From an uncultured virus (IMG/VR IMGVR_UViG_3300037603_000040) (lineage: Duplodnaviria; Heunggongvirae; Uroviricota; Caudoviricetes; Schitoviridae): a stretch of 64,000 nt of DNA. Where the stretch lies: the IMG/VR virus record IMGVR_UViG_3300037603_000040; one strand, given 5' to 3'. A program made the position numbers and the translations under genes. How positions within the stretch are numbered: position 1 is the stretch's first letter; every line of letters starts with the position of its first letter. The notes below the pieces were generated by a model. The model had not been told where the DNA came from. It saw only the letters and a program-made list of their open reading frames with translations, and searched no databases. Of this stretch, positions 8,786 through 57,550 are shown piece after piece.

Positions 8786-10042
8786 ATGAAAGCTCCAGAA
8801 CAGATCATGCAGGAGATCATGTCCATCCAGGTTCCTCCCGAGGACGTGCTGAACACCATGCTCAGCCGAACCAAGGGAGCGATCTTCACAGGTGGACCAG
8901 AGAAGGGGGCTGGCTTTCTTGGCTCCCTGATGTGCGATCACAAGTATGTCTGGGACAACACCTGCATGACGGCTTGGAGTGATGGCAAAGTAATAGGCTG
9001 GAATCCCCGGTTCTATCTCTGGCTCACACCAGCAGAGCGGGTCACAGTTCTGGCTCATGAGCTCTGGCACACTGCCTATGATCACATGGGTCGGGTCTAT
9101 GACCGGTGCCCTGACGTCTGGAACAAGGCTGCCGACTTTGTCATCAACCTAGCTCTGAAAGATATGGGTTATGTGTTTGGTGAAAACCTCATGTCTCTTG
9201 GTCCCTGTCTCGATGAGCAGTATCGGGACATGCACACGGAGCAGGTTTACGACTTGCTTCCCAAACCTCCTGGATCTCCCCCGCCTTGCCCGACGCCCCC
9301 GGATCCTGACGGATCCGGTCAGGCGCCTGGGCAAGACAAGCCTCAGCAAGGACAGGATGACCCTCTGGGAGGGGACATAAGAGTCCCTGGCGACCAGAGC
9401 CCTGCTGCTAAAGCAGAACAGATGGGAAAGATCATCAAGGCTCGTCAGGCTGCCAAGATGTCTGACAAACCCGGTCTCATTCCAGGAGAGATCGAGCTTG
9501 TGCTCGAGGAATACCTCTCTCCGATCTTGCCTTGGGAAGTTCTGCTGCAACGCTTCTTCACCGAGCTCAGCAATGACGACTATTCCTGGAAGAGGCCTTC
9601 TCGTCGCTACGATGAAGAGTATCTTCCCTCATTGCTCAGCGACAACGGGCTGGAGCATCTGATCTACTACTGGGATATCTCAGGATCGATCACCGATGCC
9701 ATCATCCTGCGCTGCCACTCGGAGCTCAAGTATATCCACGATATGCTGGCACCGAAGAAGCTCACGATCGTCACTTTCGACACCAAGATCCAGGACGTCT
9801 ACGAGTTCACTGACGACATGCCTTATGACAAGATCACAGTGCATGGTCGAGGTGGCACGTGTCTGATCGAGGTGCAGGAGCATATCAAGAAGCACAGACC
9901 GTCAGCGGCTGTCATCTTCTCGGATATGTTTGTGAAGCCCATGAAGCAAGATCCAGGGTCTCCCATCCTCTGGATCGTGATTGGCAACAAGAAAGCCAAA
10001 GTCCCTTTCGGCAGGATGGTCCACATCCCACGAGAGAGCTGA
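8786..10042 (+). CDS. metallopeptidase-VWA protein (N4 gp25/DUF2201-like)
   Basis: HELWH (HExxH), DFVIN, MIDAS-like DISGS and GRGGT; adjacent to the AAA ATPase. Confidence 0.85.
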   Translation: MKAPEQIMQEIMSIQVPPEDVLNTMLSRTKGAIFTGGPEKGAGFLGSLMCDHKYVWDNTCMTAWSDGKVIGWNPRFYLWLTPAERVTVLAHELWHTAYDHMGRVYDRCPDVWNKAADFVINLALKDMGYVFGENLMSLGPCLDEQYRDMHTEQVYDLLPKPPGSPPPCPTPPDPDGSGQAPGQDKPQQGQDDPLGGDIRVPGDQSPAAKAEQMGKIIKARQAAKMSDKPGLIPGEIELVLEEYLSPILPWEVLLQRFFTELSNDDYSWKRPSRRYDEEYLPSLLSDNGLEHLIYYWDISGSITDAIILRCHSELKYIHDMLAPKKLTIVTFDTKIQDVYEFTDDMPYDKITVHGRGGTCLIEVQEHIKKHRPSAAVIFSDMFVKPMKQDPGSPILWIVIGNKKAKVPFGRMVHIPRES

Positions 10043-12657: not shown

Positions 12658-12876
12658 ATGCAGATGAGATTTGATTACAAAAATCACCGGGGCGAGACCA
12701 GACCCAGAACAATCCAGTTTATCGGGATCATCTTTCTCAAAGATCCAGGTTATGGCTACCAGCCTGGCTGGTTCGTCCATGGGGTCTGCGAAGACAAGAA
12801 CGAGGTTCGGTCTTTCGCTCTGTGCAACATCCTCCTTCCCGATGGTGGGAAGTATTACCTACTGGAGCCAAGCTGA
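12658..12876 (+). CDS. stand-alone WYL-like domain protein
   Basis: FDYKNHRGETRPRTI...WFVHGVCEDKNEVRSFAL. Confidence 0.7.
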   Translation: MQMRFDYKNHRGETRPRTIQFIGIIFLKDPGYGYQPGWFVHGVCEDKNEVRSFALCNILLPDGGKYYLLEPS

Positions 12877-13418
12877 TGGACGTGATATTTGACATCGACG
12901 GAACCTTGGCCGACCCAGCTCACCGTCTCCACTTCATCAATGATATGGCCTATTGGACCAGTCCCCCAGGAAAGCTTCCCAGACCAAACTGGGAGGCTTT
13001 TCTCTCTCCAGATGAGATAATCAAGGATGCCCCAATTCAGCAGACTTTCTATCTTCTGATGACCATGCTCGAGAACCCCTCGGACTATCGGGTGATCTTC
13101 GCCACTGCCCGCAAGGAATCCACCCGCCAAGTCACCTATGACTGGCTCAGAGGCTCCCCAGAATGCCCAGTGAGAGCTTTTACCTGGAATGCCTGGGAGA
13201 GGTTGTCAGAAACCAAGGGTCACACTGTGGGACCGCTTCTCTACATGAGACCAGACAGTTCTCGTAAACCCTCCGACCAGGTCAAGCGCCAGCTTCTGAA
13301 ACAGATAAGAGCAGATGGCTTTCAGCCCACATTGGTTTTCGAAGATCGCAAGCAAGATGCTGCCATGTGGCGCTCAGAGGGCCTGCTGTGCTGCCAGGTA
13401 GCAGACGGTGCATATTGA
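12876..13418 (+). CDS. HAD-family phosphatase (polynucleotide kinase 3'-phosphatase-like)
   Basis: FDIDGTLAD, TAR, LYMR..D..VK, FEDR, QVADG. Confidence 0.85.
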   Translation: MDVIFDIDGTLADPAHRLHFINDMAYWTSPPGKLPRPNWEAFLSPDEIIKDAPIQQTFYLLMTMLENPSDYRVIFATARKESTRQVTYDWLRGSPECPVRAFTWNAWERLSETKGHTVGPLLYMRPDSSRKPSDQVKRQLLKQIRADGFQPTLVFEDRKQDAAMWRSEGLLCCQVADGAY

Positions 13419-13773
13419 CAGGCTTCTGTCATCCTCTGCTCTCCCTGAGCCTCTGACAGGCCGCCGTAAAGACATCTACGACAAGGTGATGAGCCGGGTT
13501 CGGATCATGGATGGTCCCCTGGACACACCTTGTCATGTCTGGACTGGCCCTGACTCAGGGAACGGTCGGGGTGGAGGCTATGCCCGCATGCACCTGGATG
13601 GCCAGACCGTTGCAGTCCACATCGTCATGTGGGTCAACGCTCATGGCTTCATCCCTCGAAAGAAACAGCTCGATCACATCTGCCTCAACCGACGCTGTGT
13701 GAACCAGGAGCACCTTCAGTTGGTGACGCATAAGCGGAACCAGAAGCTCAGATCCATGAGGAAAAAGACATGA
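13408..13773 (+). CDS. HNH endonuclease
   Basis: CHVWTG..GY..VH..LDHICLNRRCVNQEHL..VTHKRN. Confidence 0.85.
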   Translation: MHIDRLLSSSALPEPLTGRRKDIYDKVMSRVRIMDGPLDTPCHVWTGPDSGNGRGGGYARMHLDGQTVAVHIVMWVNAHGFIPRKKQLDHICLNRRCVNQEHLQLVTHKRNQKLRSMRKKT

Positions 13774-14009
13774 ATTTTTGGAAACGCTTCGACAAAATCT
13801 CAGAGCACGACATACAGACCGGTAACGTCATGGGACCACTTCTTATCGTAACCTTTGTCGTAGTTTTCATCGTCTGTTTGTTTTTTATGAATCCCGTCAT
13901 GACGATGGGAATAATCATAACCATTGCAGCGATTGCCCTGGTCCTATTTGCCTGGTTCTCTTGGCTGCCTCGTCTTTGGAATCGCTTCGTCGATTTCCTT
14001 CAACGCTAA
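13770..14009 (+). CDS. small membrane protein
   Basis: Two hydrophobic stretches. Confidence 0.65.
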   Translation: MNFWKRFDKISEHDIQTGNVMGPLLIVTFVVVFIVCLFFMNPVMTMGIIITIAAIALVLFAWFSWLPRLWNRFVDFLQR

Positions 14010-14018
14010 GGAAGCATC

Positions 14019-14441
14019 ATGAAAATCTATGTGCTCTACACCTGGTTTTCCGGTGAAGAGAAGACCTTTGAGGTCTTCACCAATGCACACATTGCCAAAG
14101 ATACAGCTCTCACATATGCCGTTGAGCTCTGGGGCAAACATCACGAAGATGACTGGCCTGCGATGCCTGACTCCTGGGAATGTATCTATCAGGAAGTCCT
14201 CAACAGAGCAGGTGAAAGCGGTGACGAGATCGTGATCACTGAGCACACACTCATCTCCACCAACTTCGTCATCAATCTCGCCAACACCGATGACGGCATC
14301 GTTGTGGAGACGATGACTCAGGCCTCCTCCTACATCGAAGACTTGATCCAGGATGGAGAGACTTCCGACAACATCACGCTCCTTGAATCCTTCCCCAAGG
14401 ACTTCGAAGTGGCTCCCAAAGCGAAAGTGATCATCAAATGA
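14019..14441 (+). CDS. hypothetical protein
   Basis: 140 aa with AAGGA RBS. Confidence 0.7.
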   Translation: MKIYVLYTWFSGEEKTFEVFTNAHIAKDTALTYAVELWGKHHEDDWPAMPDSWECIYQEVLNRAGESGDEIVITEHTLISTNFVINLANTDDGIVVETMTQASSYIEDLIQDGETSDNITLLESFPKDFEVAPKAKVIIK

Positions 14442-15376
14442 ACAAGATCTACACTCATCCCGGTCAGTCGCAGATGCAGGTTGAGGTCATCCTGGCTTCA
14501 CGCAATGCGGCGCTGCCGGATGAGAAGCCGCTTGTCACTCTGCGCATGCGCTATCCCCGCATCATTCACGGCGAGGTCATGACGCACCGGGATTTCAGCC
14601 GCAATGCACGTTCCTCTCGCGCCGTGCCGGTTCGGACCATGCTGCTCGAATGCACCACGATGCCGTTCATTCCGTGGCACTGGCTTAAGAACCAGGCGGG
14701 CATGCAGGGCACAATTCCACTCGGCCCCGAAGAGGTGGAGCTGGCTCGTCAAAACTGGCTGAAGGCGCGTGACGCGAGTGTGGCTGTTGTGCAGACCCTG
14801 TTCGATCCGGAAGGATTGAATATCCATAAGCAGAACCCCAACCGGCTGCTGGAGCCCTTCTCTTGGATCGACACGCTGATCACCTCGAACCGCTGGGATA
14901 ACTTCCTGTGGCTGCGTGATCACGAAGCTGCTGAGCCGCACTTGCAGGATCTGGCACGGCTGGTGAAACAGGCTCTGGATGAAATGGAAGTTCAGGATCT
15001 CCAGCCCGGTCAGTGGCATACCCCGTATATCACCGATGATGATGTTGATCATGCAATGGATATTTCGGATACACGGGATGATTTCATTGCGTGGATTTGC
15101 AAGATCAGCGCCGCTCGCTGCGCTCGGATCTCCTACAAGCCCTTCGACGGTGACAGCTCCTACGAGGCTGAACTTCGTCGCTATGACCAGCTTGTAACCT
15201 CTGACCGGGTGCATGCTTCTCCGACCGAGCATCAGGCAACGCCTGACCAGTTCAACTATACAGGTCAATACATCACTGATGATCGAGGTGTGTGGGACAA
15301 ACCCCATCTTCACGGCAACCTGCCGGGGTGGATCCAGGCACGCAAGCTCATCCCCAATGAGTGCTTCTACGGCTGA
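14438..15376 (+). CDS. thyX: FAD-dependent thymidylate synthase
   Basis: YPRIIHGEVMTHRDFSRNARSSRAVP, HKQ..NRLLEPF, SAARCARISY, HASPTEH. Confidence 0.9.
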   Translation: MNKIYTHPGQSQMQVEVILASRNAALPDEKPLVTLRMRYPRIIHGEVMTHRDFSRNARSSRAVPVRTMLLECTTMPFIPWHWLKNQAGMQGTIPLGPEEVELARQNWLKARDASVAVVQTLFDPEGLNIHKQNPNRLLEPFSWIDTLITSNRWDNFLWLRDHEAAEPHLQDLARLVKQALDEMEVQDLQPGQWHTPYITDDDVDHAMDISDTRDDFIAWICKISAARCARISYKPFDGDSSYEAELRRYDQLVTSDRVHASPTEHQATPDQFNYTGQYITDDRGVWDKPHLHGNLPGWIQARKLIPNECFYG

Positions 15377-15387
15377 GGAATATCATC

Positions 15388-15690
15388 ATGCCCAAGGACT
15401 CCCCAAAGCTCCCAAGGTCTCTCAAGGAGATCGCCAAGGAAGACGGCTTTGTTCGTCTTCCTCCCCTCTACGTCCGATATGAGGACATTCCAGAGGTTCA
15501 CAAGATCGCTGAGAAATATGACGATCGGATCAGAGAACTTCGCCAAATCGCGGAGAAAGAGTATCTGGATTTCTGGAAAGCAAAGCGGGAAGAGACAGCC
15601 GAACCAGAAGAGGAAGGCCCTTACCAGCCGGAAGAGATCGTCAAAGGGGTCTTCGATCCCTTGGCGGCAGACTGGCCTGGAATGAACTAG
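15388..15690 (+). CDS. hypothetical protein
   Basis: GAGGA RBS. Its stop codon overlaps the stop of the convergent rep gene. Confidence 0.65.
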   Translation: MPKDSPKLPRSLKEIAKEDGFVRLPPLYVRYEDIPEVHKIAEKYDDRIRELRQIAEKEYLDFWKAKREETAEPEEEGPYQPEEIVKGVFDPLAADWPGMN

Positions 15691-16181
15691 TCTTCTTCTT
15701 CTGCCAGATCGAGATCGAGTTGATCCCCTGATCGGGGAACAAAGGGCAGCACTGACCCGAAATACTGCCGTTCCACACGGCGCAGCGGTGGCAGCTTGTC
15801 CAGCTCCTCTCGATCCGGCTGCTCAGCCTCATCCAACCAAACCTGTGCAGTGAGTGCCGATAGACCGCGGTTTGATCTGGAGTCTTTCCAGCAGACCCTG
15901 GAGTTCAGAACATAAGCATTCACTGCACTCATCGAGCCGATCTGACGCTTCTCGATCCAGCGTCCTTTGATGAGGACGTCGATCGCTCTGATGATGGATC
16001 TCTTGGATCTACCAAGCTCCTTGGCCAGCACGGCCTGGGAGACCACCACAGCGTTCTGTTTGTTGGCAAAGACCACAAGCAGATGCAGAAGAGCAGCAGC
16101 CATGGGATAGTCACGTGTCAAGATGGCCCATGCAGCGTGGGCATCAATATCGGTCTGACTGAACTCATTTCTGATCCTCAT
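15687..16181 (-). CDS. rep: plasmid replication initiator, pBBR1 Rep-like winged HTH
   Basis: QTDIDAHAAWA.L..PMAAALLH.LV..QNAVVVSQ..LAKELGRS.RSI..AI..L...RWI...VNAYVLNSRVCW...LS.L.A.V parallels my recollection of pBBR1 Rep along its whole length. Confidence 0.85.
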   Translation of the reverse strand: MRIRNEFSQTDIDAHAAWAILTRDYPMAAALLHLLVVFANKQNAVVVSQAVLAKELGRSKRSIIRAIDVLIKGRWIEKRQIGSMSAVNAYVLNSRVCWKDSRSNRGLSALTAQVWLDEAEQPDREELDKLPPLRRVERQYFGSVLPFVPRSGDQLDLDLAEEED

Positions 16182-16199
16182 GGATCTGATTTACGCGAT

Positions 16200-16470
16200 T
16201 CGGACAAACCTGTCCACTGTTTGGACATTGATGACTCTTATGGTGTCACAGGAGTCACCACCAGGTGACATGGGTGACACCTCCCCCTATTGATTCTGTT
16301 CACAAAATCCAGGTTCTTCTTCTTATGATCTATCCACCGGGGAAAATCCAGCCGACCGAGAGATTTTAATTTATCGGGTCGGGCGGATGGATTTTCCTTT
16401 GGATCATGTCTTCTTTTTGTTGTGTATTCCGGGCCTTTGTATAGCCTCATCGTGTGGATAACTTGAATAC
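16200..16470. promoter_or_regulatory. putative plasmid replication origin (oriV) and rep promoter region
   Basis: Non-coding region upstream of rep. Nested palindrome at 16242-16281, GGACA/TGTCC palindromes at 16202-16226, an AT-rich tract, and a perfect DnaA box TGTGGATAA at 16453-16461. Confidence 0.65.
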
Positions 16471-16518
16471 GAGCTCCACACATTCCCCCACTCATGGAAC
16501 CAAAAAAGCGAGCAGCAA

Positions 16519-16749
16519 ATGGAAGATGATCTCCTGATCCCTTCAGGATCCAAGAAGAACAAGGTAGCTCCGGTTGAGGTCGAAGTGATCCTTGTTCAGG
16601 AAAATCACGAGTATATCCAGGTCAGAATCAGCGAAGACTCGAAGCCCATCACCCTACCCAAGTCGGGCGTGAAGGTCTTGAAACGATCCGGAAAATACCT
16701 CGAATTGTCCTTGTCAGAACGCAAGGCCATCAACTACAACCTGATCTAG
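16519..16749 (+). CDS. hypothetical protein inside the rep-par module
   Basis: 76-aa ORF divergent from rep and convergent with the par operon; weak RBS. Confidence 0.55.
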   Translation: MEDDLLIPSGSKKNKVAPVEVEVILVQENHEYIQVRISEDSKPITLPKSGVKVLKRSGKYLELSLSERKAINYNLI

Positions 16750-16750
16750 G

Positions 16751-16780
16751 ATCACACCACACCAAAGCGAATCAAACCGC
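16751..16780 (+). repeat. pentamer array downstream of the par operon (parS candidate)
   Basis: ATCAC ACCAC ACCAA AGCGA ATCAA ACCGC. Confidence 0.7.
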
Positions 16781-16789
16781 TTTGATGGA

Positions 16790-16830
16790 GAGAAGCCGGT
16801 TCTGGAGTCCCTGCCTGGAACCGGCTTCTC
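16790..16830. terminator. hairpin between convergent genes
   Basis: GAGAAGCCGGTTC...GAACCGGCTTCTC, a perfect 13-bp inverted repeat. Confidence 0.7.
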
Positions 16831-16837
16831 GTCAAAT

Positions 16838-17074
16838 TCATTCTTTGTTGGACCTTGCATATGACCTCATCAGCACCTCAAGCATGTCGCCATTTGTTCG
16901 ACGCTCTTTCTTGCAGAGATCACGGAACTGCTGATAGGCCAACCGCCCCATGCGCAGAGACATCTGCACGGTCTCATTCGGGTTACGGCTCGGCCAGCGA
17001 TCGGCAGAAGCATAGCGGCGATCGTTTTCCGGCTCTTCATCGAGCTGTGTGAAATCAAGCGGATTGCGTGTCAT
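16838..17074 (-). CDS. ribbon-helix-helix centromere-binding partition protein (type Ib ParB/ParG-like)
   Basis: 78 aa, overlaps the 3' end of parA. Flexible N-terminus, then TVQMSLRM beta strand and two helices (YQQFRDLCKKE, NGDMLEVLM). Confidence 0.75.
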   Translation of the reverse strand: MTRNPLDFTQLDEEPENDRRYASADRWPSRNPNETVQMSLRMGRLAYQQFRDLCKKERRTNGDMLEVLMRSYARSNKE

Positions 17075-17786
17075 GGTCTTGTCCTTTCATCGTCAGATTT
17101 GTTTTCTTGGTGGCTCCATGCAACCGAGAGACTGCACGAAGAACCTGTTCAAGCTCTTCCTCAAAAAGCTCCGCATTCGCGATAGCCTTGTTCACGCCGG
17201 ACACCTCTTTGGGATCCAGGTCGTAAAGGGTTCCCCCTGTGTTATGCAGGGTCGAGAAAGCCGTCCGAATATGGAGCTCTGTATCAAAGCTCCCTACCTT
17301 GCTCCGGACTTGCTCATTCAGAGACTTCGCCAGACGCGATTTGACGGCTGCCTGAGTGCGACAGAAGAGAACCCGGCAGGGTATGGACCTGCGCAAGCTT
17401 CTCTCTTCCAGGCGCACCTGAGAGATCGTCTCAATGGCGCCTTCAGCATCAGGCTGTTCATCCCCCATGGGAATGATCACCAAGTCACTCTCACCCATGG
17501 CGAAGGCATTCAGCCTCGTTGCAGCCCCTTCCAGATCGAGTACGACATAGTCGCTCTCGTTCAGGGCTGCTTCGATTTCGTCATGGATGTGATGCTCTCC
17601 TTTCGAGGCTCTCACATGGAGCCTTCCAGGAAGATCCGCTTTGCTCGCCCAGGACATGAGGCGCTTGGCCGGATCGGCATCTATGATGGTCACGTTCCTG
17701 CGACGACACAAGGTCGTTGCCAGGATAATGGCCGACGTCGTTTTTCCTGCGCCCCCTTTCGAGGACGCAAATGTGATGACAGGCAT
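17055..17786 (-). CDS. parA: type Ib ParA partition ATPase
   Basis: MPVITFASSKGGAGKTT (deviant Walker A), IIDADP, VVLDLEG, DLVIIP. 243 aa with no N-terminal HTH; GGAG RBS. Confidence 0.92.
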   Translation of the reverse strand: MPVITFASSKGGAGKTTSAIILATTLCRRRNVTIIDADPAKRLMSWASKADLPGRLHVRASKGEHHIHDEIEAALNESDYVVLDLEGAATRLNAFAMGESDLVIIPMGDEQPDAEGAIETISQVRLEERSLRRSIPCRVLFCRTQAAVKSRLAKSLNEQVRSKVGSFDTELHIRTAFSTLHNTGGTLYDLDPKEVSGVNKAIANAELFEEELEQVLRAVSRLHGATKKTNLTMKGQDHDTQSA

Positions 17787-17849
17787 CTTCTTACTCCAGT
17801 TTTCCCAATCGAAACGCTGCAACAGAAAATGACGTTTGTCACGTAAAAA

Positions 17850-17884
17850 ATCACACCGAACCGCATCAAATCGCACCAAAGTGC
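17850..17884 (+). repeat. pentamer array upstream of parA (operator/parS candidate)
   Basis: ATCAC ACCGA ACCGC ATCAA ATCGC ACCAA AGTGC. Confidence 0.75.
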
Positions 17885-17930
17885 AATTTTGCCCCCTGAA
17901 GTTGCAAAACCCTGAAAAAAGGATACTCAG

Positions 17931-18203
17931 ATGACACCTTTCCAACAGATTCCTGATGGTCTCGTGATCACCCTTCAAAAGGGAATCTATCGTCAGACTC
18001 CCCTCTTCCAACGGGCCGGTAATGTCTACGCCAAAATCGGCAGTGGTTTTATCCGGTTGTACAAAAACGGCGGAACCAGTGTCCCGTCGATCTCCTGGAA
18101 GGAATACGACCCAGGTCAGGCAAAGATCGGAGAAGACTCCTTCGCTCTGATCATTCGCACCAGCACACATATCCACAAGAAAGCCTATCCCAAGGCCGTC
18201 TGA
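17931..18203 (+). CDS. hypothetical protein
   Basis: 90 aa with AAGGA RBS; GIYRQ..LF.R...YAK.GSGFIRL. Confidence 0.7.
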   Translation: MTPFQQIPDGLVITLQKGIYRQTPLFQRAGNVYAKIGSGFIRLYKNGGTSVPSISWKEYDPGQAKIGEDSFALIIRTSTHIHKKAYPKAV

Positions 18204-18220
18204 TCCAGAAAGACTTTCCC

Positions 18221-19567
18221 ATGAATCTACCCACAGCTCCGGCAACCTCTGTTGCCATGACGCCTGATCAGCAGCAGGCCTCTGATGCGTTCTATCGCTT
18301 TCTCATGAGCGATGAGACCATCTTCATCCTCTCTGGCGGCCCTGGTGTGGGGAAGACCTGGCTCATGGGTCATCTCTGCGATGATGTGCTCAGCCTCTAC
18401 GCAGACTCCTGCCGGATGCTTGGCCGGGAGATCCAGTTCAAGTCTGTTCACTTCACAGCCACCACCAACAAGGCTGCGGAGATCCTGGAGCACTCCATCA
18501 AAAAGCCGGTCCAGACCATTCACAGCTTCCTCGGCCTCAAGGTCAAAGAAGATTACAAGACCGGCAAAACCGATCTCATCAAGACCAATAACTATGAGAT
18601 CAAGAAGAACATCATCCTCTTCATCGACGAATACTCGATGATCGACACGACGATGTTCAAGCTCATCATCGACACTCTGCCCTACTGCAAGATCATCTTC
18701 GTCGGTGACGACAATCAGATGGCTCCGGTGGATGAGAGCAAGTCCCCCGTCATGTGCGCCATCACACCGGACAATCATGCTTTCCTGAACCAACCAGTTC
18801 GGAATGCTGGGGCTCAGCCTCTGGTCGATATCTGCAACCAGTTGCGCCAAACAGTCGAGACCGGAGTCTTCCACCCCATCAAGGAAGTCCCCGGCTACAT
18901 CGAATACCTGGATGATGCACAGATGCAGCAGAAGCTAGATCAGCACTTCCAGGATCTCGATCCTTCCTGCCGGGTGCTTTGCTACACCAACTCACGGGTG
19001 AAGCAATTCAACGACCATATTCGTCAAGTGGTTCGTGGAATGCCTGCCGAAATCCAGGTTGGGGACACCCTGGTCGTTGCTCAGAATGCTCAGACCACAG
19101 CAGGTCAGACCATCAACGTGGAGCGGGAAGTCTATGTCACACATATCGGGCCTGCCATGGACACCGGCCTGGATCCTTCGATCTTCGAGGATGGCAAAGA
19201 GCTTCTCTATCAAGAAGTGAAAGTCAGAGTCCTACCTTTCCACAAGAACGATTATGTTCTGCGAGTTCCGCTGGAAAACGAGCGTTGGAGTATTGCTGTG
19301 AAGTATTTCGCCAGGATCAAAGACTGGCACAACTACTTCGCCCTGAAGAACAAATTGGCCGACCTTAGAGACAAGGCTGCCTGCACTGTCTACAAGGCAC
19401 AAGGCTCCACCTACGACTTTGTCTTCCTGGATCTGGGAAACATCGGAACCTCTTTCGATGCCGAACAGGTTGCCAGGATGCTCTACGTGGGCTTCTCCAG
19501 AGCCAAGTCCAAAGTCTACCTCTATGGGCAGCTCCCCAATAAATACACCTATCCCCGCACTCCCTGA
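18221..19567 (+). CDS. SF1 DNA helicase (Dda/RecD-like, N4 gp37-like)
   Basis: GGPGVGKT, TATTNKAA, IDEYSM, GDDNQ, TVYKAQGST, YVGFSRA. Confidence 0.92.
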   Translation: MNLPTAPATSVAMTPDQQQASDAFYRFLMSDETIFILSGGPGVGKTWLMGHLCDDVLSLYADSCRMLGREIQFKSVHFTATTNKAAEILEHSIKKPVQTIHSFLGLKVKEDYKTGKTDLIKTNNYEIKKNIILFIDEYSMIDTTMFKLIIDTLPYCKIIFVGDDNQMAPVDESKSPVMCAITPDNHAFLNQPVRNAGAQPLVDICNQLRQTVETGVFHPIKEVPGYIEYLDDAQMQQKLDQHFQDLDPSCRVLCYTNSRVKQFNDHIRQVVRGMPAEIQVGDTLVVAQNAQTTAGQTINVEREVYVTHIGPAMDTGLDPSIFEDGKELLYQEVKVRVLPFHKNDYVLRVPLENERWSIAVKYFARIKDWHNYFALKNKLADLRDKAACTVYKAQGSTYDFVFLDLGNIGTSFDAEQVARMLYVGFSRAKSKVYLYGQLPNKYTYPRTP

Positions 19568-19587
19568 ACCAGAGAGGAACCCTTCCT

Positions 19588-20088
19588 ATGTCAGACGCTC
19601 ATAGACACATCGTCAGCGATATTGTGGAGAAGCTCTTTACCAAAGAGTTCCGCAACATGGAACGCATCAAAACAGAGCTGATCGAGGCAAACCATGCCCT
19701 CGGCAACCCCAAGGAAGGGTTCCTCTACAAGGGCAGGTTTCACACCAATGTCCCTGCTTCTCAACAGAAAGACCTGATCAAAAAGATGCTCCACATGGAT
19801 CTCTATGATCGAGGCAACTTTTACACTGAGACTCTCGACAGGCTCACCAAAGATGAACAGAAGGTTCGTCAAGGTCTCAGCCTGATGATCTCTCCCTGTG
19901 TCACGGCACAGGATGTCCGGGACTCTCTCCCTGAGATCGTTCTCGATCTTCTTCCTGCTGATATCCAGGCACTCTCCCGCACTCGGCCGGAATCCTGGAG
20001 ATTTTCACATCAACCGATGCAGCTATTGCAGCAGGAAAACGTGAACGGCCTGATCTCTTTCTATGTGGCAAACAGGATGCTTTACTGA
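19588..20088 (+). CDS. conserved N4-like protein (gp38-like)
   Basis: Lies between helicase and polymerase; QDVRDSLP motif. Confidence 0.7.
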   Translation: MSDAHRHIVSDIVEKLFTKEFRNMERIKTELIEANHALGNPKEGFLYKGRFHTNVPASQQKDLIKKMLHMDLYDRGNFYTETLDRLTKDEQKVRQGLSLMISPCVTAQDVRDSLPEIVLDLLPADIQALSRTRPESWRFSHQPMQLLQQENVNGLISFYVANRMLY

Positions 20089-22127
20089 TGCAATTCCAGA
20101 CATTCTCCGATCAACCGCAGTCCTCCTATCCTGTCGCAATCCTGGCTCCCAAATTGGAAGCCGACAAGATGCGCGTGGAATACCTGGATCCGATCTGCCT
20201 GGATCCGGATACTGTCATCTCCTATCAGCTTCACCGCACCGGCAAGAAGACTCCTGTAGCAGTCCAGAAAGAGTATCTCGACGAGCTCTGTGATATTCTG
20301 GTCAGTGTCCACACTCAGTATCTGCTTGTGGCCGATGCTGAGTATTTCAAGACTCTGACCGGGGTGAACAAATCGGACAGCTACCTCGGCTATGTCATGC
20401 CCAACACATATCCTGAAGCCCACAAAGGCCGCTTCAGGGTCATCTTCGTCCCCAACTATCGGCAGGTCTTCTATGACCCCATGAAGACCCGAGCCAGGAT
20501 CAAGCAGAGCCTCGATGCCCTCTATGACCATGCCAAAGGCCGGTATCAGGATCCAGGTGAGTCCATCATTCACTTCGCAGCTTACCCTGAGAACCTGACC
20601 GATATCGCAACCTGGCTCCAGAAACTCCATGAGATGAACTGTGACCTTACCTGCGATATCGAGGGCTTCTCTCTGAAACACTATGATGCCGGAATAGGCA
20701 CCATCTCCTTTGCCTGGAACAAGCATGAAGGTATCGCCTTCGCTGTGGATCTCGGACCCAATGCAAAAGCTGTCCGAAAGCTGCTTCTTCAGTTCTTCCG
20801 GGACTTCAAACGGAAGATGATCTACCACCACATCACCTATGATGCCACGGTGCTGATCTATCAGCTCTTCATGGATCACCTGATCGACACTGAAGGTCTC
20901 CTGGATGGTCTCAGTGTCATGCTTCGTGACTTCGATGACACCAAGTTGATCACCTATCTGGCCACCAACACCTGTGCAGGCAACGAACTGGGTCTAAAAA
21001 TCCAGGCACAGGAATTCGCTGGCAACTATGCTGTGGAAGAGATCACGGACATCACCAAGATCCCTCTCCCAGATCTGCTCGAGTATAACCTCGTGGACTG
21101 TCTCTCCACCTGGTATGTGCGTGAGAAGCACTGGGACACCATGGTGGCAGATGATCAGCTCCAGATCTATGACGAGCTCTTCAAACCGGCTGTCTTTGAC
21201 ATCGTTCAGATGCAGCTCACCGGCATGCCGGTCGATCCTGTGGCTATTGCAGAGGCCAAGAAAGTCTTCCTCGAAGACAGCGAAGCCGCAGTCAAGATCA
21301 TCAGAAAGCACAAGTGGGTTCGACAGTTTTCCTACATGCTCGAAGAAGATCATGTGGAAAAGCGTAATGCCACGCTGAAGAAGAAGCGGATCAAGATCGG
21401 GGATGAACCTCAGCAGTTCAATCCCAACTCTCCGCCTCAGAAGCAGCGGCTCCTCTATGAGGTTCTCGAGCTGCCAGTGATTGAGAGAACCAAGACCAAA
21501 CTCCCAGCCACTGGCTCCTCTGTCCTGGAGAAGCTCAAGGCCTATACGGAGGATCCAGAGATCAAGTATCTTCTGGATGCTCTTCTCGAGTTCAGTGTCG
21601 TGGACAAGCTCCTCAACACGTTTATACCGGCCCTGGAGAGTGCTGTCCTGGCTCCGGATGGGTGTCACTACCTCTTCGGCAACTTCAACCTGGGAGGCAC
21701 TGTATCGGGCCGCTTGAGCTCTTCTGAACCCAACCTTCAGACAATCCCGTCCAAGAAGAACAAGTTCGCCAAGAAGGACTACAGCAAGCTCATCAAGAAG
21801 TGCTTCATCGCCCCCAAAGGCTGGGTGATGATCGGTCTGGATTTCAACTCTCTTGAAGACATGATCTCTGCTCTGACCACCAAGGATCCCAACAAGCTGA
21901 AGGTCTACACCGACGGCTTCGATGGGCATTGCTTGAGGGCTCAGAGCTACTTCTCCGAGAACATGCCCGATGTGGAAGTGGCTCCCGAAGGAGCTCGCTG
22001 CTTCAAAGCCGTGGTTGGCGAGAAGATCATCTACTTCCACGAGAACGAGGAAGTTGAATACCAGGGAACCAAGATGACCGGGCTCGAGCTCTGGAATCGC
22101 CTGGCCAACGTAAGGGAAACGGCATGA
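20088..22127 (+). CDS. family A DNA polymerase, N-terminal part (exonuclease through motif A)
   Basis: CDIEGFSL (ExoI), YNLVD (ExoIII), GTVSGRLSSSEPNLQ, LDFNSLED (motif A), DGH. Confidence 0.92.
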   Translation: MQFQTFSDQPQSSYPVAILAPKLEADKMRVEYLDPICLDPDTVISYQLHRTGKKTPVAVQKEYLDELCDILVSVHTQYLLVADAEYFKTLTGVNKSDSYLGYVMPNTYPEAHKGRFRVIFVPNYRQVFYDPMKTRARIKQSLDALYDHAKGRYQDPGESIIHFAAYPENLTDIATWLQKLHEMNCDLTCDIEGFSLKHYDAGIGTISFAWNKHEGIAFAVDLGPNAKAVRKLLLQFFRDFKRKMIYHHITYDATVLIYQLFMDHLIDTEGLLDGLSVMLRDFDDTKLITYLATNTCAGNELGLKIQAQEFAGNYAVEEITDITKIPLPDLLEYNLVDCLSTWYVREKHWDTMVADDQLQIYDELFKPAVFDIVQMQLTGMPVDPVAIAEAKKVFLEDSEAAVKIIRKHKWVRQFSYMLEEDHVEKRNATLKKKRIKIGDEPQQFNPNSPPQKQRLLYEVLELPVIERTKTKLPATGSSVLEKLKAYTEDPEIKYLLDALLEFSVVDKLLNTFIPALESAVLAPDGCHYLFGNFNLGGTVSGRLSSSEPNLQTIPSKKNKFAKKDYSKLIKKCFIAPKGWVMIGLDFNSLEDMISALTTKDPNKLKVYTDGFDGHCLRAQSYFSENMPDVEVAPEGARCFKAVVGEKIIYFHENEEVEYQGTKMTGLELWNRLANVRETA

Positions 22128-22864
22128 TCCAGATTGATGATCTCATCGACACCGTCTGTGAAGTGGATCCAGGAGAGCACGATGTAAAGCGCATCAACTC
22201 GATCAAGGATCTCTACCCCACAGAGAGACAGGACAGCAAGGTTCCCACTTTCCTGCTCACCTATGGGGGCACCTACATCGGCATGATGGCTCAGTGCGAC
22301 TTCGACAAGCCTGCTGCACAGAGCATCGAGCATCGCTATCACCAGCTCTACAAGGTGAGCGACGAATGGGTGGCTGAGAAGCTTCAGCTCGCAACCAAGG
22401 ACGGCTACGTTACGGCCGCCTTTGGTCTGCGGGTGAGAACCCCTCTCCTCAAGCAGAGTATTCTAGGCAACCGTGCCACCACCTGGGAAGCGGAAGCCGA
22501 AGGACGCACTGCCGGGAATGCACTGGGTCAATCCTGGTGCCTTCTCAATACTCGAGCACACATGGCTTTCATGCAGAAAGTCAGGAAGCATCCCAAGTAT
22601 CGCACCCTGGTTCGACCCACGGCGCATATCCATGATGCAGGCTATTACCTGATCCCTGATGACATCGACGTTCTCCTCTATGTCAACAAGGAGCTGGTGA
22701 AAGAGGTGCAATGGCAGAACCATCCTGACATTGCGCATGACACTGTCCACCTCGGCGGAGAGCTGTCGATCTTCTACCCCAACTGGGCCAGTGAGATCAC
22801 CATACCCAATGGCGCCAGTGCTGAAGAGGTTCTTCAGACGGTGGCCAAGAAACTCAACAAATAA
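22124..22864 (+). CDS. family A DNA polymerase, C-terminal part (motifs B and C)
   Basis: RQDSKVPTFLLTYGG (motif B), RTAGNALGQS, HIHDA (motif C). ATGA overlap with the N-terminal part. Confidence 0.9.
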   Translation: MIQIDDLIDTVCEVDPGEHDVKRINSIKDLYPTERQDSKVPTFLLTYGGTYIGMMAQCDFDKPAAQSIEHRYHQLYKVSDEWVAEKLQLATKDGYVTAAFGLRVRTPLLKQSILGNRATTWEAEAEGRTAGNALGQSWCLLNTRAHMAFMQKVRKHPKYRTLVRPTAHIHDAGYYLIPDDIDVLLYVNKELVKEVQWQNHPDIAHDTVHLGGELSIFYPNWASEITIPNGASAEEVLQTVAKKLNK

Positions 22865-23256: not shown

Positions 23257-23291
23257 AGCACACCATACCGAACCACACCGCAGCAAATCAT
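23257..23291 (+). repeat. pentamer array
   Basis: AGCAC ACCAT ACCGA ACCAC ACCGC AGCAA ATCAT; intergenic. Confidence 0.75.
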
Positions 23292-27345: not shown

Positions 27346-27380
27346 GTCACACCACCCCAAACCAAACCACCCCACTCCAC
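27346..27380 (+). repeat. pentamer array
   Basis: GTCAC ACCAC CCCAA ACCAA ACCAC CCCAC TCCAC; upstream of the SSB gene. Confidence 0.7.
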
Positions 27381-29834: not shown

Positions 29835-29864
29835 ACCACACCACACCGAATCACACCAACGCAC
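29835..29864 (+). repeat. pentamer array
   Basis: ACCAC ACCAC ACCGA ATCAC ACCAA CGCAC; intergenic. Confidence 0.75.
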
Positions 29865-31228: not shown

Positions 31229-32056
31229 ATGACTGACATAAGCAAGGAAGCGGTGGAGCGGTTGGCGACATTCGCAAAAGATTACGTTGGGTGGGACAAG
31301 TGCGCCGACACCCTGCGCGCCCTCTCTGCCCGTCTGGCGGAGGTGGAGGCTGCGAACCGTGGTCTCGTTAGGCTGAATGACGCGACACAAAACCGCGCAG
31401 AAGCCGCAGAGGCCAAGCTGGCAGAGGTGGAGAAAGAGCGGGATCGCCAATACGACGAGAATGTTGACCGGATAGCCCAGCAAGGTGCCGCCAATTACGA
31501 GATTGAGAGGGTTGAGGCGGAGTTATCGTGTCGCGAACAGCTAATCAAAGATCATTTGCGCAAGATCATGCACTTTGAGAATCGTGTTGAAGATGAATCG
31601 GTCCGCGCCGAGGCCGCAGAGGCCAAGCTGGCCGTGGCGCGTGAGGCTTTGGAATTTTACGGTGGTGTAATGCCCGTCTCGTTTTCACCCGGTTCAGACG
31701 GTGGCTGCAAGGCCCGCCAAGCCCTCGCCACCCTCAACGCAGACACTCCCGCCATCCCACAGGACAGCGCATGGCAACCTGAGCCGGAAGTTAGGCTTGA
31801 AACGACGAAGGAAAACATCGCCAGAGATATAAGGGAGGGGCGTTTTCCGTCACGCTCTGAGCCTGAATTTGTGCTGGTTTACACCACACCACCCCCAGAG
31901 GTGAGCGTGGGGGAGGCGGCAAGTGACGAAAGCATCATGCACGCCATGCACGAGCAAATGTGCGGATGCGGGAAAGGAATAGATTGCCCACGGTGCAATG
32001 ACTACCTGATCGCGTTCCGCGCCGCCCTCCGCGCTCTGGCAGGGGAGGAAGGGTGA
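31229..32056 (+). CDS. coiled-coil hypothetical protein
   Basis: AGGAG RBS; repeated RAEAAEAKLA. Confidence 0.7.
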   Translation: MTDISKEAVERLATFAKDYVGWDKCADTLRALSARLAEVEAANRGLVRLNDATQNRAEAAEAKLAEVEKERDRQYDENVDRIAQQGAANYEIERVEAELSCREQLIKDHLRKIMHFENRVEDESVRAEAAEAKLAVAREALEFYGGVMPVSFSPGSDGGCKARQALATLNADTPAIPQDSAWQPEPEVRLETTKENIARDIREGRFPSRSEPEFVLVYTTPPPEVSVGEAASDESIMHAMHEQMCGCGKGIDCPRCNDYLIAFRAALRALAGEEG

Positions 32057-32931: not shown

Positions 32932-35900
32932 TTAATTTGTTAGCGCAACGACCGGATGGAGAGAGGGCGAATTCCAGCCCATCTGTGGCCCAAGGGCATA
33001 CGAAGCACTCCCATCCCACATGGTTCCCAAGAGCGAACCAGAAGCGACCGTATCAATTCCCGTTGACGGTCCAAAACCCCCCATAAAGAACAGACCATGT
33101 GCCGGCCGCTCTCTCAAGGTCTTCACGGCAATCTTCATGATCCGAAGTTTGTAGTTGAAGAACCAGAGAAGGCCATTGCTTTCCAGTGCATCTCTCGTCC
33201 GACCGGGCAGCCGGTTATACTGGACGAACTCCTCCAGGATCACATCCAGAGCTTCTCTGTTGCTCATCTTCTTCTTCTGAACCAGGTGATCATAAAGCAC
33301 AGCCTTGGCTACAAAATCCCCATACTGGATCATCCGGTTCAGGCCCTGGAACAGCGCAGTATCCTTTGTGATCAGGATATTCTTGGCCGCAGTCTGACCC
33401 CAGCCAGGAAGCTTCTCAGTGGCCTTTTCCAGGTAATCCCCCCACTTGCCTTCCCGGATAGCCACGTCGGCTTCCGTCAGGTTCTCAGAGATCGTGGAGA
33501 ACTCCCCTGCCTCAATCAGTGGTGCAATGCTCATCCGGGCATTAGCATCTTTCAGCACCTGGATCTGAGCCTTGATCTTGGCCTGCTTCTCAGGCTGTCC
33601 AAAGGCACCGGTGAAGGCCACCTGGAGTTTCTGGATCTCCTCTTTGTTCTTTACGAACTGAGTGATTTCCACGAACTTTTCCCGCATACCTTTGGCGATC
33701 GCCAGGGGGTTCATCCCCACAATACTGAGGTGCAGCACGTTGGACAGGATGTTATCCCAGGCCACGACAATGCCTCTGACCACGATCGTCGTCTTGGCGT
33801 AGGACACAGTCTCCCCGACGAACTCCTCTGCTTGCTTGAGCATCTTGAAGGCAGACTTACCCAACACAAAAGTGGCAAAGTCCTTGATCCGCTCCTGGTT
33901 CTGAGGACTAAACCGGGTCACACCAGTCCAGGCATCTGTCACACCAGCAGCCCTATACCCGATGGCATCATCGAGCATGTCCTTCCGGATCGGCAGAAAG
34001 CCTTCTTTCCCGAAGATCTCAGTTGCATCCTCTTTGATGCGCCATACCAGAGTGCCCCAGGCATCTTTGATGACAGGATCGGTGATGTTTTTGTCAGCTA
34101 CGTTGATAAATACCGTTTCTCTGTCACCATCCTTTACATCGTCATGGTTATCGTAGATCTCCTTCAGGGTCTTGATCAGATCCTTGTTGGCATCATGAGC
34201 GAGGTTCTCTTCCTCAATACGGCCAAGCCACACCCCCAGCATACGACCCAGGTGAGTGTCTCTCTGAAGACCAGTCATCTGATCTGGATCCAGGAGCTGC
34301 TGATAGCCCACTACGTTACCACTCCCACTCAGAAGGGGGATCATATACTCACCGGGGGGCAGAGTGTTCTTGGAGCCGTTGTTGCTGATGCTACGAGCAA
34401 TCTGGAATGCCCTCTGGCCTGTAACCATCTCACCAGCCTCTTCGATCTTCAGACGCCCTGTCCGGCTGTCTACGCCGTTGTAGGTCTCATGCACAGTCTG
34501 AGCCACACCCTGACGGAACGCATTCCGGCCAGACACCGAGGACTGGTAATAGCCCCGCTTGCCTTTGAAGCCATCTCGAGCATCTCCGACGTAGTTACCG
34601 ATGCGCACATAGCCGATCCGCTCCAAGTATCCTCTCTCCATGTCATCTGCGACGATCACAGAGGAGCCAGGAGCCACCAGGGAGGGGATGTAGCCCTTCA
34701 GACCATTGACCACTGCCACAGCACTGTCCGTGCCATTCTGGGCCTTCCTGGACGTCTCCAGGGACCGGGCAGCCTGAAGTGTCCCGATCACAGAGCGCAT
34801 ACCCTCATCCTCGGTCTCCACTAGCTCCTTCAAGCGAGCCAGGGTTTGACCGTCTACTTTCTGGAACGCATAGAGGCTGGTCAGCTTGTCGATCGCCTCG
34901 ATCAGATCCGCTGTCACATCCGGATCTTTCGGACGAGACTTCTCATTGTAGAGGTGAGCGATCGAATGCGCATTAAGCAACAGGTTGTTCGAGGAGTTCT
35001 TTCTCTCCATCATGAAGGTGGCCAAGGCCTTGCTCTTTTCCAGGTAAAGGGGTGAGAACTTGCCCCCCAGAGCCCGGACTTTTTCTTCCTGTGCCTGGAT
35101 CTCCTTCTTCACCTGTGTGTTATCCTTCAGCATCTTGAGCACTTCAGCACGGCTGAAGGCCATGATGTCTGTCCGACCTAGCCCTGTGAACATCTGGCTC
35201 CAAGTCTCCTTGTCCAGCTTGGTGCTGAACAGGTTGGCCAGTTCCTCTGGGATGTTCTCCCGGTAATCCTGACGCACAGCATCGATCAGAGCCCGAACCT
35301 TGTTGATGAGGCGCAGCAAAGATCTATTCGAGGCTGTGGCACCGCGGATATCCGAGATCACAGACCGCAGAGCAAACCCGTTGGGCATGTCATTGGCCAT
35401 TTTGGTGATCGTGCTACCAGTGACCTCGGACATTTCCTTGGAACCAAGGGAAGCCACAAACTTGGCTGCCGTCATACCGGTTTTGAGGTGCCTGTTCTTG
35501 GTTCGCTTGAACCTCTCATTGAGAAACAGCACAGTCTTCTTCGAGGTGCTCTCCACCACATTGGCCAGATACTCGTTGGCCATGTTGCCTGGACGAGACA
35601 GGATCTCGGCCGTAGCAATGAAGCTCCGGTCCCCCTGGATCTCGCTCAGACCATCTGCCAGTCGATCTAGCTCGGCCGTCACATTGGATTTTTGGACAGC
35701 ACGTGTCACGGACATGCGAGTGAGCAGCTCGACGATGGTATTGGCCAAGCTTCTCAGGAACCCATCCACACTGTCATGCTTGACGTCGATGGTCTTAGGA
35801 GCAGGCATGTTTTCCAGGATCTGACGCAGACTGTCGTCCACCTGAGCCAGAGCCAAGAAGGAAGCCATAAGATCTGTGTTACCATTGGCTGTCTTGCGCA

Positions 35901-57509: not shown

Positions 57510-57550
57510 ATAAAAATTGCAGAATTGCCTGGATTAATTTCAAGCGTCTC

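Follow-up and report, generated by a model that had tools for sequence, protein, structure and literature searches.

Can an N4-like phage persist in its host as a plasmid? Phages of this type are regarded as purely lytic, textbook virulent viruses; they have been widely isolated and are candidates for therapy, partly because of their virulence. The question is raised by a stretch of 64,000 nucleotides from an uncultured virus (IMG/VR record IMGVR_UViG_3300037603_000040; hereafter referred to as the window), in which a gene for a plasmid-type replication initiator (rep), an origin-like spacer, a gene for a ParA ATPase (parA) and a small gene for a ParA partner lie among phage replication genes. 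A preliminary description had proposed that this virus is a candidate phage-plasmid. Phage-plasmids as such are known; what appears to be new is a plasmid replicon and a partition operon in an N4-like clade, none of the phage records matched by its ParA or by either type of initiator being N4-like. The best explanation for the window is an uncultured N4-like (Schitoviridae-type) phage of an alphaproteobacterium, with its own lytic replication genes and two plasmid-derived maintenance cassettes. That this phage leads the life of a plasmid prophage, or is maintained in a stabilised carrier state, is a reading that we hold with moderate confidence.

Two plasmid-type cassettes in an N4-like genome

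The N4-like nature of the genome was confirmed by a giant frame for the virion RNA polymerase (vRNAP; Table 1) and by core genes of the N4 type in the N4 order: RNAPII, an AAA/vWA pair, thyX, helicase, family A DNA polymerase, primase and portal. The window covers most of a phage genome of ~70.5 kb; a single contig of 70,487 bp is on record with exactly its Rep and partner proteins. The N-terminal third of the vRNAP frame aligned with a 3535-aa frame of the complete relative G001, and Pfam yielded no model match for the part of the window frame tested. Further genes identified with Pfam encode a T7-like RNA polymerase subunit, a dCTP deaminase, an SU10-type portal, a lysozyme and an AAA_24 protein; no terminase was seen within the 64 kb, beyond which ~6.5 kb of the contig lies. 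The DNA polymerase matched 476 phage records, every one at less than 60% identity; the best were N4 and N4-like phages, at no more than 55%. A nucleotide search with positions 15000-19000 matched known phages in the thyX and helicase flanks only, and almost all of the matches listed were N4-like. Phage structural and lysis genes and the plasmid-type rep and par genes share one molecule in the window.

The rep, partner and parA genes are all intact and lie on the minus strand between thyX and the helicase gene, antisense to the surrounding phage operon, as originally described; likewise, the stop codon of rep (15687-15689) overlaps that of a convergent phage open reading frame (ORF), orf109. 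The claim that they form a single contiguous replication and partition module did not hold. A phage gene, orf76, with counterparts at the same position in two relatives (L004, 45% identical; L027, 33% identical), stands between rep and its origin on one side and the partner gene and parA on the other, and the two pairs are therefore considered to be separate insertions.

Rep was matched by Pfam HTH_36 (PF13730; E = 1.2e-7, 31.9 bits against a cut-off of 25), a helix-turn-helix (HTH) family, and by 198 plasmid records in a tblastn search, 58 of which covered at least 80% of the query. The best matches (42-51% identity) were located in alphaproteobacterial plasmids of 5-10 kb, from Sphingobium, Paracoccus, Phaeobacter, Thioclava and acetic acid bacteria, and were annotated as HTH proteins or as ‘RepL’. 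The Rep of pAES7 (NC_019366.1) was 41.5% identical over residues 2-136 (E = 6e-22). A structural model built on seven sequences contained a winged-helix domain at residues ~8-95 (predicted local distance difference test score, pLDDT, 70-91), followed by a disordered tail. The top rows of a Foldseek search with this model were all winged-helix proteins, none at E ≤ 0.001, and a sequence search against solved structures returned nothing meaningful. The winged-helix initiator first described was thus borne out by both the HTH_36 match and the model, and its sequence relationships place Rep among the HTH_36 initiators of small alphaproteobacterial plasmids (pAES7/pYAN-1 type). The preliminary description had likened it to the Rep of pBBR1, a broad-host-range plasmid of small size whose initiator is likewise small and of the winged-helix type, and may belong to the same family; among the proteins compared, the closest relatives are the HTH_36 Reps of the pAES7/pYAN-1 type. 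Single-sequence scans of viral contigs and of metagenome contigs with Rep gave zero matches, whereas a profile scan of metagenomes identified 76 loci, all of them plasmid-like relatives, at 41-51% identity.

The spacer upstream of rep, which had been called origin-like, has the corresponding organisation. Towards rep, it contains in succession an inverted repeat, a conserved box (AGATCATAAGAAG), the motif AATCAAT, a G-run and a 40-bp palindrome. In all six plasmids examined (pYAN-1, pP88_i, Paracoccus methylovorus p3, pSx-Qyy, Thioclava p5 and Paracoccus aestuarii p9146), the region upstream of rep similarly presents the box, 35-45 nt of A/T-rich DNA, a G-run and two to three repeats of ~20 bp. 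These repeats differ in sequence from plasmid to plasmid, those of pYAN-1 sharing a GTGAC/GTCAC core with the window. The box was also found upstream of rep in 35 of the 53 metagenome loci that could be assessed (those of the 76 with at least 350 nt upstream of rep), and a G/C-run followed it in 33 of these 35. An 85-aa ORF within the spacer (16238-16495) belongs to no family in Pfam, PHROGs or NCBIfam; it was therefore rejected as a gene, which it probably is not, and treated as non-coding origin DNA. Judged by these elements, the layout of the origin is that of the plasmid family of Rep. Its retention argues for a complete replicon rather than a stray HTH gene, and the phage is thus predicted to carry a complete pAES7/pYAN-1-type replicon, with Rep and its cognate origin. 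Maj et al. (2013; PMC3832669) describe the REP modules of pAES7, pMARC3 and pMOS2 as combining an HTH_36 initiator with an origin that has two iteron-like repeats; replication of the cloned pAES7 module was confined to Alphaproteobacteria.

The second cassette comprises parA and the partner gene. ParA displays the deviant Walker A motif SSKGGAGKTT at residues 8-17 and has no N-terminal HTH, in agreement with the first description. A 396-aa ORF (17055-18245) extends this frame upstream, but since the start of the conserved protein lies at 17786, the longer ORF was discarded as the parA gene. Family matches were obtained with NF041546 (1.5e-27), phrog_164 (8.4e-26) and Pfam VirC1/CbiA, and the nearest solved relatives were TP228 ParA/ParF entries in PDB (1.6e-14 and 2e-14). 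The best plasmid relatives came from Acuticoccus (60.6% identity), Roseivivax (60.5%) and Thioclava (54.2%). In these plasmids, parA is followed and overlapped by a small gene, the product of which is 40-43% identical to the window partner and shares with it a conserved RW-SR motif (RWPSR) in the N-terminal tail; in the Roseivivax plasmid, this pair adjoins a RepA initiator. Homology searches thus revealed plasmid counterparts for all three proteins. The Roseivivax marinus plasmid (39 kb; NZ_CP090154.1) carries, in addition to its close ParA-partner pair (60.5%) and RepA, a relative of the HTH_36 Rep (37% identity, 1885-2352), so both types of cassette meet on natural plasmids.

The partner had been described as a ribbon-helix-helix (RHH) protein overlapping parA. 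The overlap was confirmed; an RHH fold is weakly supported, being plausible on the basis of a strand-helix-turn-helix sequence pattern. Pfam matches within the partner family were weak (RHH_10, 0.014; RHH_5, 0.12; each in one of six members), and RHH neighbours in a protein atlas constitute leads only. The predicted ParA-partner complex scored 0.36, against 0.00 for the best control, weakly supporting an interaction: the mark applied was reached by 116 of 157 solved complexes and two of 215 mismatches, and passing scores no higher than 0.60 were obtained for 18 of the 157 solved complexes and for both of these mismatches. The runs agreed in at least 32% of contacts, with a partner pLDDT of at least 62, and the pass may reflect likeness only, because a like complex (TP228, 5u1g) has already been solved. 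The type Ib segregation system originally proposed is consistent with a small ParA lacking an HTH and a small downstream partner, the RHH fold being the weakly supported part. The best explanation for this cassette is a type Ib-like partition operon, with a ParF-like ParA, a small ParG-like partner predicted to bind DNA and repeat arrays bracketing both genes.

One of these arrays precedes parA and the other follows the partner gene. The three upstream repeats are conserved in the aligned upstream regions of five relatives; arrays were found upstream of parA in all six loci examined and downstream of the partner gene in three of four assessable loci, and they bracket the par operon in the window, L004 and L006. 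Thirteen clusters of the same G/T-repeat element (consensus TTTGGTGTGGTGTGA, with a periodicity of 5/10 bp) are scattered over the window, the first 16.7 kb of which is free of them. The majority occupy intergenic sites 20-60 nt before the start codon of a phage gene, where the sense strand reads TCACACCACACC; a few are located within the vRNAP gene and one other gene. The density of the element was ~2 per 10 kb in the window (shuffles gave ~2 hits) and 2-3 per 10 kb in parA-bearing relatives, against 0 and 0.2 per 10 kb in the N4-like roseophages RD-1410W1-01 and EE36phi1, neither of which is among the ParA matches. The element may be a binding site for the partner, a clade-specific promoter or leader element, or both.

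The source of the window is a metagenome of modest depth (~9, a value that says nothing about copy number), which lends some weight to a chimeric assembly of phage and plasmid. However, two Logan contigs from the probable source sample, the first of them 9.8 kb long and reaching from thyX into parA, span 14000-17427 and 17408-19935 with zero differences. Contigs from two other pond samples bridge 15496-15819 (the orf109/rep junction), 16649-16892 (orf76/partner), 16803-17237 and 17656-17990 (parA/orf90), again with zero differences, although the three pond samples may stem from one campaign. The spanning of three junctions in other samples, together with the same synteny in 16 other loci, led us to reject a chimera, which retains virtually no probability.

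Table 1. Coordinates of the cassettes, their candidate sites and neighbouring features in the window
Feature	Position	Strand	Remarks
thyX (left flank)	14438-15376	+	PHROG thymidylate synthase phrog_85, 7.1e-77; N4-like phage matches
orf109 (phage ORF)	15361-15690	+	109 aa, no family; left junction of rep insertion; stop overlaps rep stop
rep (plasmid-type replication initiator)	15687-16181	-	164 aa; winged-helix N-terminal domain and disordered acidic tail
Origin-like spacer upstream of rep, candidate oriV	16182-16518	-	337 bp
40-bp palindrome	16242-16281		Four GTCAC/GTGAC half-sites, immediately after the G-run; iteron- or operator-like, candidate Rep binding site
Conserved origin box AGATCATAAGAAG	16319-16331	-	Sole exact match in the 64-kb window
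19-nt inverted repeat	16341-16397		89% complementary, 19-nt A/T-rich loop; third GGATTTT copy nearby; candidate unwinding or binding element
orf76 (phage gene)	16519-16749	+	76 aa, function unknown; separates rep and origin from par insertion
G/T-repeat array TTTGGTGTGGTGTGA	16752-16766	-	Just downstream of the partner gene; candidate second centromere or phage regulatory element
13-nt perfect inverted repeat	16790-16830		Between convergent orf76 and partner genes; terminator-like hairpin, no T-run
ParA partner gene (ParB/ParG-like, probable RHH)	16838-17074	-	78 aa; overlaps parA 3' end by 20 nt
parA (ParF-type Walker ATPase)	17055-17786	-	243 aa; starts MPVITFASSKGGAGKTT; no N-terminal HTH
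Three tandem 10-bp repeats TTTGGTGCGA / TTTGATGCGG / TTCGGTGTGA	17851-17880	-	Between the divergent parA and orf90, 65 nt before parA; candidate centromere or operator
orf90 (phage ORF)	17931-18203	+	Function unknown; right junction of par insertion; from the ORF list
SF1 (Dda/RecD-like) helicase (right flank)	18221-19567	+	Pfam AAA_19, AAA_30, UvrD_C_2; N4-like phage matches
G/T-repeat clusters 1-7	16752-16766, 17851-17880, 23258-23287, 27347-27366, 29836-29850, 31879-31893, 42102-42121		
G/T-repeat clusters 8-13	43616-43640, 50348-50362, 53792-53811, 54509-54533, 57486-57510, 59316-59335		
vRNAP (giant virion RNA polymerase) frame	32932-43803	-	3623 aa; N4-like hallmark

The hairpin between orf76 and the partner gene was not called by a terminator scan. 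A scan of 15500-18300 for E. coli-type sigma-70 promoters returned 0 sites, against 1.7 expected, with a consensus that is uninformative for an alphaproteobacterial host. To the left of thyX, the window encodes a WYL-domain ORF (72 aa, 12658-12876), a protein with a PNKP-type phosphatase domain (12822-13418) and an HNH_3 endonuclease (13408-13773). Elsewhere, a 209-aa protein encoded on the minus strand (50364-50993) has a Tad2-like (Thoeris anti-defence 2) domain (Pfam, 1e-23).

Uncultured relatives and the exchange of initiators

A profile search of IMG/VR with ParA identified 18 loci, at 49-75% identity. In 16 of these, N4-like helicase and DNA polymerase genes lie beside parA in the order of the window, so the survey of Schitoviridae-type genomes suggested in the preliminary description places the par operon at the same site in each of them. 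The partner gene was present in 15 of the 16, the remaining locus being cut by the contig end. Several loci represent the same phage from different samples, and ~10 distinct lineages can be counted. The window Rep was found in none of the 18 loci. Instead, an initiator of the Rep_3 type (Pfam Rep3_N and Rep3_C) is encoded within 0.3-4 kb of the par genes in all 12 assessable N4-like loci (the other four end no more than 1.5 kb beyond these genes). A hidden Rep_3 in the window was ruled out, the best match in a search for it having an E value of 0.56. With Rep_3 in place of the window Rep in 12 of 12 assessable relatives, the initiator has therefore been swapped.

The Rep_3 proteins of the relatives are 56-61% identical to one another and 56-62% identical to initiators encoded by plasmids of Pukyongiella, Paracoccus, Thioclava and Acuticoccus; close relatives of ParA are present on some of these plasmids as well. 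Iteron-like direct repeats, with a spacing of 22 or 42-43 nt, accompany Rep_3 in three of the four loci examined (L006, L028 and L004) and were not found beside that of L001. ParA is the most conserved protein of the region, with a mean column identity of 82% in the clade, and its pairwise identities track those of the DNA polymerase (75 vs 69% for the window and L004, 98 vs 96% for L001 and L002, 65 vs 60% for L001 and L006), a pattern that fits vertical inheritance under constraint. Identity between the DNA polymerases was 58-69% within the clade and no more than 55% to those of isolates; the clade is distinct from every isolate.

Some features vary within this set of sequences. The family A DNA polymerase of the window is encoded by two ORFs (20088-22127, 679 aa; 22124-22864, 246 aa) with a 4-nt overlap; the first has 673 aa in L006 too, and L001-L004 have a single ORF of ~854 aa. 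The division into two ORFs may be natural, but it may also stem from a frameshift or an error. In the complete relative containing L006, the position of orf90 beside parA is held by a 168-aa protein (9339-9845, minus strand) with a weak HTH_23 match (E = 0.0035), a possible regulator. Two loci without N4-like markers, L031 (record G008, 45,811 bp, with terminal repeats) and L033, encode ParA proteins with identities of 61 and 49% and Rep_3 proteins with identities of 58 and 55%, respectively; the L031 record has no tyrosine integrase and may be either a phage-plasmid of a different kind or a plasmid that was classified as viral.

The exchange of initiators is also what might be seen if a small replicon (and, earlier, a par-rep module) had recombined into the phage as selfish, hitch-hiking plasmid DNA, carried in the capsid as cargo without a role for the phage. 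Rep and its origin do form a discrete insertion with overlapping stops. Window-type Rep genes are otherwise found on small, plasmid-sized contigs, with N4 markers in 0 of the 76 metagenome loci and no match to a viral contig. However, parA and the partner gene occupy the same place in 16 syntenic N4-like loci, where they have co-diverged with the polymerase, ParA being at least as conserved. Moreover, an initiator is present in every assessable member, and where Rep_3 is absent another complete replicon is found, which suggests selection for function. Rep relatives at 76-85% identity exist in other samples, one of them on a contig of 2,692 bp, and a partner relative at 73% identity lies on an equally long contig; these are suggestive only. 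There was also no anomaly in GC content or composition at 15-18 kb. Taken with the evidence on both sides, inert cargo appears quite unlikely to us, and we return to maintenance of the phage itself.

Possible persistence as a plasmid and its alternatives

The modules of the clade have no equivalent among the N4-like isolates that could be matched. ParA matched 159 phage records, none of them N4-like by organism name (phages of Mycobacterium, Gordonia, Zymomonas, Sodalis, Aurantimonas, Synechococcus and Arsenophonus, one actinophage and two faecal contigs); Rep matched two, both of Burkholderia phage FLC5, and the Rep_3 proteins of the relatives matched five, none N4-like in either case. No integrase, recombinase, resolvase or transposase family was detected among the 66 window ORFs scanned, consistent with the earlier statement that no integrase is visible. 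Likewise, PF00589, PF00239 and PF00665 are all missing from the complete relative G001 (100% by CheckV; 70,741 bp, with terminal repeats), and PF00589 was not detected in five further records, of which two are at least 90% complete.

A precedent comes from Acinetobacter. The window portal matched a single plasmid record, pRBH2-3 of A. baumannii (NZ_CP110465.1; 75,126 bp, circular), at 46% identity. The annotation of this plasmid is that of an N4-like phage, with an N4-gp56 capsid protein, RNAPII and a gene for a 3646-aa product, and no tyrosine integrase is annotated; it also includes an antisense operon of parA, a small gene and a gene for an HTH_36 protein, together with a serine recombinase. 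Its ParA is 100% identical in Acinetobacter phage vB_IME_Ab2712 (OK149216.1; Schitoviridae, from hospital sewage), 38,805 of the 40,621 nt of which match pRBH2-3 at 99.0%. The databases therefore list one N4-like element twice, once as a phage and once as a circular plasmid. A search of the openly accessible literature, to which the RBH2 genome paper and other subscription papers do not belong, found no description of pRBH2-3 as an N4-like phage-plasmid.

Gene content, homology, origin architecture, conservation in the clade and the Acinetobacter precedent together suggest that phages of this clade probably persist as plasmids. In cells where lytic growth is not initiated, the linear genome delivered by such a phage would circularise through its terminal repeats, and host RNA polymerase would express the antisense-oriented rep and parA-partner genes. 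Rep would bind the palindromic iteron-like repeats beside the conserved box and recruit the host replisome, allowing the origin to fire. The partner, if it binds DNA as predicted, would load onto the G/T-repeat arrays, and ParA-ATP would segregate the copies. The phage would then be inherited as a low-copy plasmid, with its lytic genes presumably silenced, until lytic growth resumes.

Several observations weigh against this reading. The record of the Acinetobacter phage is marked UNVERIFIED, and a lytic phage carried in culture could also be assembled as a circle; moreover, pRBH2-3, which was the sole N4-like plasmid found in PLSDB, is of a different lineage. No record of the clade as a replicon in a cell was found: a circular replicon in a bacterial assembly, which the preliminary description had proposed to look for, was not encountered in PLSDB or the species-representative genomes, and all holders of the locus are metagenomes, with no RNA runs among those listed. 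The best ParA match in the species-representative genomes was only 38% identical, a weak negative because the method requires shared exact peptides. Family scans of the window, in which many small ORFs remained without assignment, revealed neither a CI-like repressor nor an antirepressor or any other lysogeny switch, and the silencing of lytic genes requires explanation, since N4-like phages inject their own RNA polymerase. The integrase scan extended to the window and thus not to the remaining ~6.5 kb of the contig. In addition, ParA falls below the NCBIfam equivalog cut-off for NF041546 (96.5 vs 180 bits); the monomer model of the partner (pLDDT 66) has helices only, with no strand; and its best sequence leads have E values of 0.014-0.022 (RHH_10, 0.014; McdB in PDB, 0.022). 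The candidate centromere arrays are not specific to par, the same element recurring at 13 places, mostly before phage genes. Finally, initiators are not diagnostic. In PHROGs, Rep matched ‘replication initiation O-like’ and DnaD-like loader families, and an initiator alone is no sign of plasmid life, because similar domains occur in lambda O-type initiators of phages; a lactococcal Skunavirus phage record also encodes an initiator of the RepB family, and Skunaviruses are regarded as strictly lytic.

Some of these points would be expected if the cassettes served the lytic cycle of a strictly virulent phage, with Rep and its origin starting or boosting phage replication, as lambda O does, and ParA and its partner positioning replication or packaging centres or acting as regulators at the dispersed G/T elements. 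The O-like and DnaD-like matches, the Skunavirus initiator, the recurrence of the repeat before phage genes and the failure to find a repressor in the window scans are all compatible with such a role, as is the location of the relatives' Rep_3 on the same strand as the phage replication genes. However, the phage retains a full replication set of the N4 type (DNA polymerase, helicase, primase and AAA_24 protein). The lytic cycle does not appear to need the cassettes, because the phage records matched by ParA, Rep and Rep_3 are never N4-like, although 476 records match the N4-type polymerase. In the window, parA, the partner gene and rep are also antisense to the surrounding phage operon, and the three proteins and the origin have their closest relatives in the maintenance modules of true plasmids. 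A purely lytic function therefore seems rather unlikely.

The cassettes could alternatively act as weapons or in exclusion, with the iterons, Rep, ParA and the partner causing incompatibility with host plasmids, chromids or co-infecting relatives. Replicon types closely resembling these modules are common in the plasmid-rich Rhodobacterales and other Alphaproteobacteria (PMC3832669), and initiators and iterons vary in sequence from lineage to lineage, as determinants of incompatibility would. Nevertheless, interference requires no complete, conserved origin with its initiator and has no known benefit for a lytic phage, and the Acinetobacter element, with the same types of gene, is recorded as a circular plasmid. 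We consider this possibility very improbable.

Maintenance as a plasmid prophage or in a stabilised carrier state remains our preferred interpretation. With respect to the second, host-dependent replication mode and low-copy persistence first proposed, the plasmid-type Rep, origin and Par and the lack of an integrase are in favour, whereas a cell-borne plasmid state and a repressor were not found. In a more elaborate version, the partner would double as a partition protein and an omega-like global repressor of lytic genes, acting through the G/T arrays, the Rep_3 or HTH_36 initiator would be exchangeable, and at least two independent N4-like phage-plasmid lineages would exist; taken as a whole, this scheme is speculative and unlikely. 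If plasmid maintenance is correct, the phage-plasmid lifestyle would extend to the N4-like family, on the basis of 16 syntenic relatives and the window plus a second lineage recorded as a phage and as a plasmid of clinical Acinetobacter. It would supply a genetic explanation for the pseudolysogeny that has long been noted among N4-like phages, bear on genome-based calls of ‘strictly lytic’, with no integrase to flag such phages, and offer a natural experiment in initiator swapping within one virus lineage.

Relationship to known replicons, partition systems and phage-plasmids

The first cassette is closest to the HTH_36 replicons of pAES7, pMARC3, pMOS2, pYAN-1, pSx-Qyy and pP88_i, the Rep proteins of which are 41-51% identical to that of the window. 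In these plasmids, as in the window, the origin lies upstream of rep and consists of the conserved box, a G-run and two to three iteron-like repeats, which are often palindromic. However, the window Rep is shorter (164 aa, against 183-235 aa), its origin repeats take the form of one 40-bp palindrome rather than clear direct repeats, and the replicon is embedded in a 70-kb phage genome, whereas the plasmids have 5-13 kb and usually carry MOBQ and toxin-antitoxin genes.

The second cassette resembles the alphaproteobacterial modules of parA, a small parB and a Rep_3 or RepA gene found in Roseivivax, Thioclava, Pukyongiella and Acuticoccus (ParA 54-61% and partner 40-43% identical to those of the window; Rep_3 56-62% identical to that of the relatives). 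The parA-parB operon of these plasmids lies next to an oppositely oriented initiator gene, the layout also seen in L006. The window differs from them in that its carrier is a phage and Rep_3 has been replaced, at another spot, by an unrelated replicon. With the type Ib system ParF-ParG of TP228, the window shares a small ParA without an HTH and a small partner that has a basic N-terminal tail and is probably an RHH protein. Another type Ib system, par2 of pB171, has parC1 and parC2 on the two sides of the operon, and the arrays on both sides of the window par operon recall this arrangement; unlike in type Ib systems, the array motif is dispersed over the whole phage genome.

Like the classical phage-plasmids (P1, N15, SSU5 and the extrachromosomal mycobacteriophage prophages with parABS), the window represents a tailed phage with plasmid genes and no integrase, and ParA-bearing mycobacteriophages are among its ParA matches. 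The classical examples belong to a different virus family; N4-like phages start infection with an injected RNA polymerase, so another silencing logic would be needed. The accessible text of one phage-plasmid survey reports few podoviral cases (PMC7969092), and that of a second study describes ten curated types, none of them N4-like, and does not use the term ‘N4-like’ (PMC12977533). A literature search combining N4-like or Schitoviridae with phage-plasmid, ParA, temperate or pseudolysogeny, covering open main texts rather than subscription papers or supplements, retrieved no description of an N4-like phage-plasmid. A published parallel in behaviour is the N4-like Pseudomonas phage Ab09, for which the accessible text describes long-term maintenance of the genome in dividing cells as an unstable pseudolysogenic state of a lytic phage and, in contrast to the window, reports no plasmid module (PMC6467409).

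An element close to the window in its overall composition is pRBH2-3: both are N4-like and encode, in antisense orientation, a small ParA, its small partner and a protein of the HTH_36 type. In pRBH2-3, however, the three genes form a single operon, a serine recombinase is present, the host is a gammaproteobacterium, ParA is 30% identical to that of the window and the HTH_36 protein yields no alignment to the window Rep. From this degree of divergence, the modules of the two lineages look like the products of independent acquisition or of a very old split.

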